A stretch of DNA of 28,152 bases from a virus (Duplodnaviria > Heunggongvirae > Uroviricota > Caudoviricetes): the IMG/VR virus record IMGVR_UViG_638341086_000001, positions 1 through 28,152 of that record. One strand, written 5' to 3'. The stretch's first letter is position 1; each line of letters begins with the position of its first letter. Made by a program: the position numbers and the translations under genes. Below are positions 22,149 through 25,662 of the stretch, piece by piece. The notes beneath the pieces are model-generated. The model did no database searches. It was not told the DNA's origin and saw only the letters and a list, made by a program, of their open reading frames with translations.

Positions 22149-24086
22149 GTGACTCTTAAACGGGCCTGTTCCCTGCTGACGGTGAAATCCTTCAGTGAGG
22201 ATGAACGGGTGATCACCGGGATTGCGTCAACGCCTTCTCCGGATCGGGATGGTGACATCCTGGAGCCGGAGGGGGCGGAGTTTGGCAGTACGATCCCGTT
22301 TCTCTGGCAGCATGACCATTCCCGCCCTGTAGGCCAGTGTACGGTGCGTCGGGTCAGGGAAGGGCTGGAAATCACGGCAATGCTGGTGAAGCCGGAGCCG
22401 GGGATGCCCTCCCAGATGGCAGCCCGGCTGGATGAGGTCTGGGCGGCCATTAAGACCGGGCTGGTCAGGGGGCTGTCCGTGGGCTTCCGTCCCCATGAAT
22501 ACACCTTTCTGGACGGAGGCGGACTGCATTTTCTGCGCTGGGAACTGATGGAGGTGTCTGCCGTCACCGTGCCCGCGAATGCGGAATGCACCATCCGGAC
22601 CATTAAATCTTACGACCGCCCGTTTTCTGCCGCGTCCGGCAACCGGAAACCGGTGGTGAAAATCGCATCTTCTGCCGGCGCTGCGGCACAGTCAACAACC
22701 GTTTTTCATAAGGAAAAGACCATAATGAATATTGGCGAACAGATTAAAAGTTTTGAAAACAAGCGTGCAGCGCTGGCAGCCTCCCTTGAGGAGGTCATGA
22801 CCAAAGCCGCAGAGGAAGGGCGCACGCTGGATGTGGAGGAGGAAGAGCATTACGACAACACCGCAGCGGAAATCCGTCAGGTGGATGCGCACCTGAAGCG
22901 CCTGCGTGAACTGGAAGCCGGTAAGGCCGCCACGGCGCAGCCGGTGAAACAGGCCGGTAACGGGAATGTGGCCGCGGTGGCTTCTGCGCCGGTGATCCGT
23001 GTGGAGCAGAAACTGGATAAGGGGATTGGCTTCGCCCGCTTTGCCAAATCGCTGGCTGCGGCTAAAGGCGTCCGATCTGAAGCCCTGGAAGTGGCCCGTC
23101 GTCAGTATCCGGATGACAGTCGTCTGCATCATGTCCTGAAATCGGCAGTGGGCGCGGGGACCACCACGGATCCGCAGTGGGCAGGCAGCCTGTCTGAATA
23201 TCAGGAATACGCACAGGACTTTATTGATTACCTGCGTCCGCAGACCATTATCGGGCGATTTGGTCAGGGCGGGATCCCTGCACTTCGTCAGGTGCCGTTC
23301 AATATCCGTGTGCACGCCCAGGTGTCCGGCGGTGCTGCCGGCTGGGTGGGTGAGGGTAAGGCAAAACCCCTGACGAAGTTTGATTTTGAATCCATCACCT
23401 TCAGTCATGCGAAAGTGTCGGCCATTGCGGTACTGACGGAAGAATTGATCCGTTTTTCCAGTCCGGCTGCTGATGCACTGGTCCGTAATGCGCTGGCGGA
23501 AGCGGTAGTGGCGCGTCTGGATACAGACTTTGTGGACCCGAAAAAAGCGGCGGTGGCGGATGTCTCCCCGGCGTCCATCACCCATGATGTGAAGGGCATG
23601 GCATCAACCGGTAACCCGGATGCGGATGCCGAGGCCGCGTTTGGCCAGTTTGTGACGGCAAATCTGCAGCCCACTGGTGCTGTCTGGCTGATGTCCAGCA
23701 CGAATGCCCTGGCGCTGTCCATGCGTAAAAATGCGCTGGGTCAGAAGGAATACCCGGACATGACCCTGCTTGGCGGCACCTTCCAGGGCCTGCCGGTGAT
23801 TGTCTCCCAGTACGTGGGTGACCAGCTGGTGCTGGTGAATGCGCCGGATATTTATCTGGCTGATGACGGCGGTGTGGCGGTGGATATGTCCCGTGAAGCG
23901 TCACTGGAGATGCAGTCTGAGCCGGGCGGCGACAGCACCACACCGTCCCCGGTGGAGCTGGTTTCCATGTTCCAGACAGGCAGCGTGGCCATCCGTGCGG
24001 AGCGCTGGATCAACTGGCGTCGTCGCCGTACTGCGGCGGTGGCGGTGATCACCGGAGTGAACTACGGCAGTGCGTCCGGCGGCTGA
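22149..24086 (+). CDS. Fused prohead protease (HK97 gp4-like) and major capsid protein (HK97-fold)
   Basis: 645 aa, GTG start after AGGAGG. N-terminal 160 aa carry the prohead-protease pattern (VITGIASTPSPDRDGDILEPEGAEF...WQHD...GLSVGFRPHEY...LMEVSAVTVPAN); then a coiled-coil delta-like linker and a ~400-aa capsid domain. The capsid-domain call rests on size, composition and position and is less certain than the protease domain. Confidence 0.7.
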   Translation: MTLKRACSLLTVKSFSEDERVITGIASTPSPDRDGDILEPEGAEFGSTIPFLWQHDHSRPVGQCTVRRVREGLEITAMLVKPEPGMPSQMAARLDEVWAAIKTGLVRGLSVGFRPHEYTFLDGGGLHFLRWELMEVSAVTVPANAECTIRTIKSYDRPFSAASGNRKPVVKIASSAGAAAQSTTVFHKEKTIMNIGEQIKSFENKRAALAASLEEVMTKAAEEGRTLDVEEEEHYDNTAAEIRQVDAHLKRLRELEAGKAATAQPVKQAGNGNVAAVASAPVIRVEQKLDKGIGFARFAKSLAAAKGVRSEALEVARRQYPDDSRLHHVLKSAVGAGTTTDPQWAGSLSEYQEYAQDFIDYLRPQTIIGRFGQGGIPALRQVPFNIRVHAQVSGGAAGWVGEGKAKPLTKFDFESITFSHAKVSAIAVLTEELIRFSSPAADALVRNALAEAVVARLDTDFVDPKKAAVADVSPASITHDVKGMASTGNPDADAEAAFGQFVTANLQPTGAVWLMSSTNALALSMRKNALGQKEYPDMTLLGGTFQGLPVIVSQYVGDQLVLVNAPDIYLADDGGVAVDMSREASLEMQSEPGGDSTTPSPVELVSMFQTGSVAIRAERWINWRRRRTAAVAVITGVNYGSASGG

Positions 24087-24101
24087 GTCTGATGAGGAGG
24101 A

Positions 24102-24121
24102 CGGGAGGCGTGCGCCTCCCG
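24102..24121 (+). terminator. GC hairpin immediately after the capsid gene (attenuator-like, no T-run)
   Basis: Perfect 9-bp stem CGGGAGGCG-TG-CGCCTCCCG. Confidence 0.3.
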
Positions 24122-24130
24122 TAACAGGTT

Positions 24131-24352
24131 ATGGCAAAGATCCGATATCTGCAGGGCACGCATGATGCCCGGGCCGGGGATATCCGTGATGTGGCACAGC
24201 CGTGTGCGGAGGTGCTGGTTCGCCTGGGGAAGGCGGAGTACATCACAGTGCGACGTCCGGCAGGTCAGAAAAAGAAACGTGATGCGGAGCATGGCGAATG
24301 TGGAACCTTTTGCGGCGAACCCGAAAAAACCAGAAATCAGGACGTGATGTAA
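24131..24352 (+). CDS. Hypothetical small ORF (73 aa) overlapping the portal start
   Basis: MAKIRYLQGTHDARAGDIRDVAQPCAEVLVRLGKAEYITVRRPAGQKKKRD...; weak RBS; overlaps the portal start by 55 nt in another frame. Possibly spurious. Confidence 0.25.
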   Translation: MAKIRYLQGTHDARAGDIRDVAQPCAEVLVRLGKAEYITVRRPAGQKKKRDAEHGECGTFCGEPEKTRNQDVM

Positions 24353-25662
24353 AAGAGGTGGGCTGGACCAGCCTGTTTCAGGCGGTGGCTGAGCCTTTTG
24401 CCGGTGCCTGGCAGCAGGGCGTGAAAGCCGATCCGGAAAGTGTCCTCTCCTTTCATGCGGTGTTTTCTTGCATTTCGCTGATATCCCAGGATATCGCCAA
24501 AATGCGACTGCGCCTGATGCAGACCGATACACAGGGGATCCGCCGTGAAAAACGGCAGGGGGATATTGCCCGTCTCTGTCGTCGTCCCAATGCACAGCAG
24601 AATCGTATCCAGTTTTTTGAACTGTGGCTGAACGCCAAACTGCGTCACGGCAATACGGTGGTGCTGAAAATCCGTAACTCCCGGGGGCAGATCAAAGAAC
24701 TGCGTATTCTGGACTGGAGCCGGGTTGAACCTCTGGTGGCGGATGACGGCGAGGTGTTCTATCGCATTACACCGGACCGGAACTGCGGGATCACGGAGGC
24801 GGTGACGGTGCCTGCCCGGGAAGTGATCCACGACCGGTTTAACTGTTTTTTTCATCCGCTTGTGGGGCTGCCGCCGGTGTATGCCGCCGGGCTGGCGGCC
24901 ACGCAGGGGCATCATATTCAGGCAAATTCAACGTCTTTTTTCAGAAATGGCGGCAGGCCGTCCGGGGTGATTGAGATCCCCGGCAGTATAACGGAAGAAA
25001 ATGCGAAAAAACTGAAGAGCAACTGGGACAGCGGGTATACCGGCGAAAATGCGGGGAAAACGGCGATCCTGAGCAACGGGGCGAAATATAACCCCACGAC
25101 GTTTTCACCGGTGGATGCGCAGACGGTGGAACAACTGAAGATGACGGCTGAAATTGTCTGTTCGGTGTTCCGTGTCCCGGCCTACAAGATTGGCGTTGGC
25201 CAGCCGCCTTCCAGTGACAACGTGGAGGCGCTGGAGCAGCAGTATTATTCCCAGTGTCTGCAGACGCTGATTGAGTCCATTGAGCTGTTACTGGATGAGG
25301 CGCTGGAAACAGGGGAAAACGAGAGCACGGAGTTTGACGTCACCACGCTGCTGAGAATGGACAGCGAACGTCGCATGAAAACGCTGGGTGAATCGGTGAA
25401 AAATACGCTTCTCACGCCCAATGAGGCCCGTAAACGTGAGAACCTGCCGCCCCTTGCCGGCGGTGATGCACTGTATATTCAGCAGCAGAACTACAGTCTG
25501 GAGGCGCTGTCCCGTCGTGATGCCCGTGAGGATCCGTTCGCGTCTTCCGGGAAAACGTCGTCAGGCACACGCCAGGAGGGCGCATCTGACGGTAATAAGG
25601 CCATAAGCGAAACAGAGCGTGATGCGGTGAAGGCGATGTTCAGGGGGATACTGAAAAAATGA
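24298..25662 (+). CDS. Portal protein (HK97-family)
   Basis: 454 aa; C-terminal signature ...FFRNGGRPSGVIEIPGSITEENAKKLKSNWDSGYTGENAGKTAILSNGAKYNPTTFSPVDAQTVEQLKMTAEIVCSVFRVPAYKIGVG typical of HK97-type portals. Confidence 0.8.
   Translation: MWNLLRRTRKNQKSGRDVKEVGWTSLFQAVAEPFAGAWQQGVKADPESVLSFHAVFSCISLISQDIAKMRLRLMQTDTQGIRREKRQGDIARLCRRPNAQQNRIQFFELWLNAKLRHGNTVVLKIRNSRGQIKELRILDWSRVEPLVADDGEVFYRITPDRNCGITEAVTVPAREVIHDRFNCFFHPLVGLPPVYAAGLAATQGHHIQANSTSFFRNGGRPSGVIEIPGSITEENAKKLKSNWDSGYTGENAGKTAILSNGAKYNPTTFSPVDAQTVEQLKMTAEIVCSVFRVPAYKIGVGQPPSSDNVEALEQQYYSQCLQTLIESIELLLDEALETGENESTEFDVTTLLRMDSERRMKTLGESVKNTLLTPNEARKRENLPPLAGGDALYIQQQNYSLEALSRRDAREDPFASSGKTSSGTRQEGASDGNKAISETERDAVKAMFRGILKK

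Follow-up and report, generated by a model that had tools for sequence, protein, structure and literature searches.

The stretch of DNA analysed here (the window) comprises 28,152 nucleotides, positions 1 to 28,152 of the IMG/VR virus record IMGVR_UViG_638341086_000001. It is a lambdoid prophage of the Escherichia coli Shiga toxin (Stx) phage type, more precisely of the Stx1a/Stx2c-phage type. From left to right, it carries an insertion sequence (IS) element, a CI-like repressor gene, helicase/primase genes, a late leader RNA, and the genes for a NanS-p-like esterase, a lysozyme and Rz. The right part holds an HNH endonuclease gene, the small terminase (TerS) and large terminase (TerL) genes, an open reading frame (ORF) of 645 aa, a 73-aa ORF, the portal gene, a 353-aa ORF, a head-tail connector gene and a gp10-like gene. 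The subject of this work is the 645-aa ORF (22149..24086, 69.2 kDa, GTG start; this and all features below lie on the + strand unless stated otherwise). An earlier reading of the bare sequence (the original prediction) had described it as a prohead protease joined to a capsid-sized domain, encoded upstream of the portal gene. Both points hold, and both were already known. The fresh point is a conserved candidate start inside the fusion gene, from which the capsid protein may be made alone.

The 5' start of the gene is preceded by the Shine-Dalgarno (SD) sequence AGGAGG (22138..22143), with a 5-nt spacer to the GTG at 22149. The same SD and GTG start are found in 46/46 E. coli-type alleles, and other lineages have GGAG(G) with ATG. 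The GTG is overlapped by an out-of-frame ATG-TGA (22147-22151). The encoded protein matches PHROG 617, "major head protein", over its full length (1e-259), and Pfam, NCBIfam and PHROG matches fall in both of its halves. Residues 1-170 (22149..22658) form a predicted serine protease domain of the S78 type, the type of HK97 gp4. Pfam Peptidase_S78 (PF04586) matches residues 48-152 (E 5e-8, 33.7 bits against a gathering cut-off of 21), and hhalign aligned the protease part with HK97 gp4 residues 24-163 at 33% identity over 130 columns. The predicted catalytic and conserved residues are His55 (22311-22313), Ser110 (22476-22478) and Glu135 (22551-22553). They are invariant in 18 + 11 sequences, including the alignment that contains gp4. 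His55 aligns with gp4 His65 and Ser110 with gp4 Ser114, the catalytic residues of gp4, and Glu135 aligns with a conserved Glu of that protein. In the AlphaFold2 (AF2) model, the protease part has a predicted local distance difference test score (pLDDT) of about 70-80. By these criteria, the N-terminal part is a protease of the HK97 gp4 type, and no further protease gene was found in the head module.

The protease domain is followed by a Lys/Thr-rich linker (residues 171-192, 22659..22724), the most variable and indel-bearing stretch of the family alignment. Next comes a putative delta-like scaffolding segment, a helical hairpin of residues ~193-262 (22725..22934), delimited by the AF2 helices (195-222 and 229-261, pLDDT ~70-77) and by the start of the TIGR01554 alignment. 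Foldseek matches with a probability above 0.9 for this segment were antiparallel coiled coils only, a weak result. The capsid core spans residues 386-635 (23304..24053), as delimited by Pfam Phage_capsid (PF05065; E 4e-14, 53 bits against a cut-off of 24.2). The NCBIfam model TIGR01554 (major_cap_HK97) matches residues 204-584 (E 1.4e-21, 77 bits against 27.5), residue 204 corresponding to model position 3, and phrog_10 matches the capsid part at 3e-59. A PDB profile search with the C-terminal part, built from 16 diverse relatives, retrieved the major capsid proteins 9d9w (2.5e-13), 8gta (5e-11), 9gyi (5e-9) and 6b0x (0.008); with the single sequence, the PDB search was marginal (0.0017). No significant match to HK97 gp5 was obtained by hhalign of the family alignment. 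The capsid identity, which the original prediction regarded as its weaker part, is settled at the level of sequence profiles because three profile libraries and the PDB profile search agree, with the capsid families matched above their curated cut-offs. To judge from these matches, the C-terminal half is a genuine capsid protein of the HK97 family and not a scaffold alone. A scaffold-only C-terminus would call for a separate capsid gene downstream, and no second capsid gene was found there: a 99.9%-identical reference continues with portal, orf353, connector, head closure, gp10-like, tail completion and major tail genes.

Related loci, 120 in all, were gathered from genomes and viral contigs to compare the gene order. 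The order TerL-protease-capsid-portal was found in 103/103 loci that contain all four genes. A continuous fused ORF is present in 107/120 loci from gamma-, beta- and alpha-proteobacteria, down to a capsid identity of 32%, which marks the fusion as an old one. Truly separate, adjacent protease and capsid genes in the same order occur in Burkholderia phage vB_FUBS1 and in Snodgrassella. Two close relatives that appear split (L062 and L094) are pseudogenes with frameshifts inside the protease domain and other lesions. The coat protein of Moraxella phage Mcat24, also matched by the protease domain, was set aside as it belongs to an ordinary portal-protease-capsid arrangement of separate genes. Since fused and unfused genes share the gene order, capsid-before-portal is a lineage trait independent of the fusion, and the two traits are separable.

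The family is very large. The 5.3-kb stretch from TerL to portal was found in 1257/5426 complete E. coli genomes, mostly at 95-99% identity and often in multiple copies, and the 8.9-kb stretch from the HNH gene to the gp10-like gene has matches in 165 phage records. The fusion gene is present at 95-98% identity in BP-4795, YYZ-2008, Stx2 phage 1717, JLK-2012, Lys8385Vzw and many Stx1a and Stx2c converting phages. In those phage records it is annotated as "putative major head protein/prohead protease", and in RefSeq as "phage major capsid protein". Among 1.84 billion representatives at 50% identity, 1171 relatives were found at E <= 1e-30; most of the best 150 of these are 615-700 aa long and span both domains. 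The NCBIfam model NF045541, "prohead protease/major capsid protein fusion protein", matches residues 49-287 only, with 54 bits against a cut-off of 525; the architecture is shared with the 645-aa protein, and the family is different. Thus, the fusion gene upstream of the portal gene (24298-25662) does reverse the order of the HK97 record, and the layout is unusual when measured against HK97. Within its own large and long-annotated family it is the norm, and the word "unusual" does not hold there. As the module is widespread and long annotated, and protease-capsid fusions have been published, the finding as first stated describes the standard head module of E. coli Stx-type lambdoid prophages and changes nothing. 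The internal start is the sole fresh point.

The candidate start is the ATG at 22725, which encodes Met193 at the boundary between the linker and the delta-like segment. The nested gene proposed here (22725..24086) would encode the delta domain and the capsid alone, residues 193-645, a protein of 453 aa and 48.3 kDa. An SD-like motif within the linker, AAGGA (22710-22714), ends 10 nt 5' of the ATG. Met193 is invariant in the family alignment despite the variable linker beside it; at the homologous position, two distant relatives have GTG or TTG as the start and all others ATG. An AAGGA, AAGGAG or GAGG motif lies 6-12 nt 5' of the start in 40/41 distinct upstream sequences. The residues encoded by this motif vary (KG, KE, QG, QE), while the purine motif itself is constant. 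The internal site is predicted to pair with the anti-SD sequence at -5.3 to -11.9 kcal/mol in each of the 18 lineages examined. The surrounding message is also poor in structure, and in almost every lineage it is the least folded and most AT-rich stretch of the gene. In 14/17 loci, the GC content from -30 to +15 around Met193 is among the lowest 3% found along the gene. The segment from -30 to +30 has a folding energy of -2 to -8 kcal/mol in most loci, whereas the averages over the gene lie at -11 to -19. With a start score defined as the SD energy minus the local folding energy, the Met193 codon comes out on top of the 25-50 in-frame start candidates in all six divergent lineages scored. Moreover, the unfused capsid genes of vB_FUBS1 and Snodgrassella start at the Met193-homologous codon with the same SD motif upstream, and in five capsid-only representatives the protein starts at the equivalent of query residues 193-196.

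Taken together, the Met193 region bears the sequence signature of a working translation-initiation region. From the conserved start signals we infer that the gene yields the 69-kDa fusion and, as a second product, a delta-capsid protein of 48 kDa. We lean slightly towards the view that the internal start is used, the capsid gene being nested in the protease-capsid gene, and that delta-capsid alone would be made beside less of the full-length fusion. It is speculation that the weaker GTG at the 5' start might tilt the balance toward the internal one. The reality of the protease-capsid fusion gene itself is close to certain.

A head-assembly core with one protease-delta-capsid gene and two starts appears to be the best explanation overall, and it is held with fair confidence. 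By analogy with HK97, the late transcript would start at pR' near 13.7 kb, and Q antitermination would read past the internal hairpins. Initiation at GTG 22149 would give the 69-kDa protease-delta-capsid protein and initiation at ATG 22725 the 48-kDa delta-capsid protein. Both products would co-assemble on the portal through the capsid domain, as modelled on HK97, with the protease and delta parts inside the procapsid. The covalent link could stand in for the C-terminal targeting tail used by HK97 gp4. After assembly, the protease would remove itself and the delta domain, again as in HK97, and leave a mature capsid protein of ~38 kDa. The hairpin behind the fusion gene (hairpin 2, see below) may stabilise or attenuate the message, so that far more capsid protein than portal protein would be made, with about 415 copies of the former (if T=7) to 12 of the latter.

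Several observations weigh against this proposal. Each internal SD is only moderate, as it falls in the top 4-15% when compared with the other positions of its gene, and the A-rich unstructured stretch could merely reflect a flexible linker rich in Lys, Asn and Thr. Because the sequences compared are related, their conservation cannot be counted as so many independent trials. No proteomic or ribosome-profiling data on the fusion family or these Stx phages were found in the literature. The cleavage sites and the triangulation (T) number are assumed from HK97. The AF2 model of the full protein, built on a shallow alignment of 18 sequences at 73-98% identity, has a mean pLDDT of 43.9; its capsid domain falls below 30, which leaves the fold unconfirmed structurally, and a Foldseek search of this poor model against the PDB returned nothing with E <= 0.001. 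In addition, the prophage copy is probably defective for packaging and would give no packaged virions, because its TerL gene is broken, unless the lesions are sequencing errors in the source.

The most serious competing explanation, which we consider possible and hold only tentatively, is that the 645-aa fusion is the single product. Each subunit would then bring its own protease and delta parts, and the internal ATG and SD would be a relic of the fusion or a by-product of linker composition. The continuous ORF, the strong 5' SD and the moderate strength of the individual internal SDs fit this explanation. It is also sterically possible, as 415 copies of ~31 kDa of internal mass amount by our own rough arithmetic to about a third of a T=7 procapsid. 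On the other hand, an SD and start that were relics would be expected to erode in the most variable region of the protein, yet they persist where the capsid domains are only 32-50% identical. The encoded amino acids change while the SD nucleotides stay, and Met193 is the top-scoring in-frame start in six divergent lineages. These points favour the two-start explanation.

Two further explanations concern the N-terminal half and the fusion itself. The N-terminal domain could be a degenerate, inactive protease that serves as extra scaffold only, with another enzyme or no cleavage at all in maturation. In line with this, the protein scores 45.6 bits with the NCBIfam protease equivalog TIGR01543, under its curated cut-off of 59, a result which also counts against the proposal made here. 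Nevertheless, the invariance of His55, Ser110 and Glu135 in all relatives examined, the Pfam S78 match above the gathering score and the lack of any other protease gene in the module make an inactive domain very improbable. It is less credible still that the fusion is an artefact, produced by a sequencing error or by a lost stop codon in a decaying prophage whose functional state was two genes. The inactivating lesions in TerL of the prophage copy and the truly separate genes of vB_FUBS1 and Snodgrassella would suit such an origin. The ORF is continuous in 107 of the 120 loci, however, including the inducible or isolated phages Lys8385Vzw, BP-4795, YYZ-2008 and 1717, and the only split close relatives are the damaged copies described above. 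The comparative data effectively refute the artefact.

Hairpins flank the fusion gene on both sides, as the original prediction had reported. Hairpin 1, which is terminator-like, lies at 22110..22136 between the TerL stop (22085) and the start of the fusion gene, immediately 5' of its ribosome-binding site. It reads GAACCGC-TGCG-GCGGTTT at 22110-22127 (stem 22110-22116/22121-22127, loop TGCG) and is followed by a T-run. It is kept in 12 Enterobacterales relatives, with seven pairs, three of them with compensatory changes, and with the T-run retained. Hairpin 2 follows the fusion gene and forms part of an element at 24094..24122, where GAGGAGG (24094-24100) precedes a perfect 9-bp stem (24101-24109/24114-24122, loop GTGC). 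The hairpin itself, ACGGGAGGC-GTGC-GCCTCCCGT (24101-24122), has no T-run. A GC-rich hairpin of unrelated sequence is found at this position in nearly all relatives, out to alpha- and beta-proteobacteria. The layout of SD, hairpin, 6-9 nt and ATG before orf73, the gene of the 73-aa ORF, was found in 9/10 Enterobacterales relatives with differing stems, the distance to the orf73 ATG being 8 nt in the window. This suggests that hairpin 2 is part of a hairpin-bridged ribosome-binding site of orf73. Hairpin-bridged ribosome-binding sites are known from T4 genes 38 and 25. Within the window, there are four distinct perfect hairpins of at least 9 bp (six overlapping matches) against 0.73 +/- 1.1 matches in shuffled sequences. 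A generic terminator scan of the region found 11 candidates against 7.5 +/- 2.9 in shuffles, thus no enrichment, and Rfam has no family for hairpin 1 or hairpin 2. The two hairpins are credible because they are conserved, not because of the terminator scan. A further perfect 9-bp hairpin (GCCAGTTAA, 4-nt loop) lies at 19665-19686 between the HNH endonuclease and small terminase genes.

The genes next to the fusion complete the module. TerL (20425..22085) is a pseudogene split into three ORFs, with PHROG and Pfam TerL matches on the three fragments. Compared with a 99.9%-identical E. coli chromosome (L001), it has a 1-bp deletion at ~20921 and a G>T nonsense change at 21495. In ~40 E. coli-type loci TerL is intact, with 553 aa, whereas the contig IMGVR_UViG_638341086_000003 of IMG/VR (L044) carries exactly the broken allele of the window. 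The small conserved gene orf73 (24131..24352, 73 aa; phrog_829, 2e-39) overlaps the portal start. Its tblastn matches show 37-58% identity in Enterobacterales loci, a match in Snodgrassella was also obtained, and a 58-aa ORF stands in its position in vB_FUBS1. The portal gene (24298..25662) encodes a protein of 454 aa of the HK97 family, with matches to TIGR01537 (2e-106, 356 bits against 112) and Pfam Phage_portal (PF04860; 6.6e-81, 272 bits against 39).

The portal gene shares an ATGA overlap with orf353 (25659..26720), which encodes a repeat-containing protein of 353 aa and takes the place that the protease and capsid genes hold in HK97. A tandem repeat of 162 bp (54 aa) is present in 2.3 copies at 25884-26254. 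The length of orf353 ranges from 148 to 463 aa in relatives. Its last ~60 residues are kept out to alpha-proteobacterial prophages and have a weak likeness to a carbohydrate-binding module (CBM5/12). A G5 run about 20 nt 5' of the overlap (ttcaGGGGGatactg, 25630-25662) is G6 in seven E. coli-type viral contigs (L046, L048, L050, L057, L064, L068 and L076), where portal and orf353 form one ORF of 807-1023 aa. This difference explains the pseudogene label "frameshifted portal" in RefSeq and the 859 positions of PHROG 2271. The A-run where portal and orf353 overlap was considered as a site of programmed -1 frameshifting. This idea was rejected, as the A-run is not kept in relatives and the fused variants differ by the G5/G6 run.

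Outside the head module, an IS3-family element lies at the left edge of the prophage region; its ALIL frameshift pseudoknot spans 1456-1572 and its transposase, which has an rve integrase core, 1501-2388. Rfam matches were obtained for the small RNA (sRNA) family STnc100, the late leader RNA (13721-13911, + strand), and for the anti-GcvB sRNA AgvB (13912-13973, - strand). Two perfect hairpins of at least 9 bp lie at 13879-13921, just 5' of the NanS-p-like esterase gene (14121-15971). The stretch 13721-13973 looks like the late promoter and tR' region of an Stx-type phage. Neither an stx ORF nor a tRNA gene was found in the window.

The internal start signature offers a testable explanation of how a fused gene could supply the protease in sub-stoichiometric amounts. 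If it is true, the choice of start site would set the protease-to-capsid ratio across more than 1000 clusters at 50% identity, and annotation pipelines should give two products for this widespread fusion gene. In the searchable literature, which is incomplete, no proposal of an internal start in protease-capsid fusions was found.

Among known systems, HK97 shares the protease family, with the catalytic His and Ser aligned, and also the capsid, portal, connector and gp10 families. In both cases, a helical scaffolding segment is part of the capsid protein itself, at its N-terminus, and the packaging set is HNH-TerS-TerL. Hairpins flank the capsid gene here, and in the HK97 record putative terminators are marked behind the portal gene and behind the capsid gene. 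The gene order differs. HK97 has TerL-portal-protease-capsid, the usual order of HK97-like phages (bioRxiv 10.1101/2025.06.14.659615), whereas the prophage has the portal after a single protease-capsid ORF and, in addition, orf73 and orf353 flanking the portal. The capsid part has no similarity to gp5 detectable by hhalign. Much closer are BP-4795, YYZ-2008, 1717, JLK-2012, Lys8385Vzw and the Stx1a/Stx2c phages, which share the module order with few point differences; the broken TerL belongs to the copy in the window. Burkholderia phage vB_FUBS1 shares the order TerS-TerL-protease-capsid-small ORF-portal-connector and is 39% identical in both domains. Unlike the prophage, it has protease and capsid as separate genes 13 nt apart and no orf353 homologue, and its capsid gene starts at the Met193-homologous codon with AAGGA upstream.

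Protease-capsid fusions have been described in Arthrobacter phages of clusters AM, AU and AN and in Microbacterium EE phages (PMC5513430), in Rhodobacter RcC phages (bioRxiv 10.1101/2021.08.04.455094) and in thaumarchaeal proviruses (PMC6563490). They resemble the fusion studied here in joining an S78-type protease to an HK97-fold capsid protein. Their sequences, however, are described as remotely related or as unrelated, and the fusions probably arose independently.

The expression strategy proposed here has its counterparts elsewhere. Lambda C/Nu3 and UL26/UL26.5 of herpes simplex virus 1 (HSV-1) are nested protease/scaffold genes, in which an N-terminal protease is followed by an in-frame internal start that yields the C-terminal assembly protein alone and in excess. 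In the archaeal virus HFTV1, ribosome profiling has recently revealed a further gene pair of this kind, gp17/gp17.5 (bioRxiv 10.64898/2026.09.13.751334). The logic proposed for the fusion gene is the same, with a predicted internal start that has its own ribosome-binding site at the domain boundary. In lambda, HSV-1 and HFTV1, however, the C-terminal product is a scaffold only, the capsid gene is separate and the protease families differ, and the internal start in the prophage is a predicted one. If it is used, the fusion gene would do for a capsid protein what lambda C/Nu3 and herpesvirus UL26/UL26.5 do for a scaffold, and gene nesting as seen in lambda, the herpesviruses and HFTV1 would then also serve capsid proteins that carry their own scaffold.

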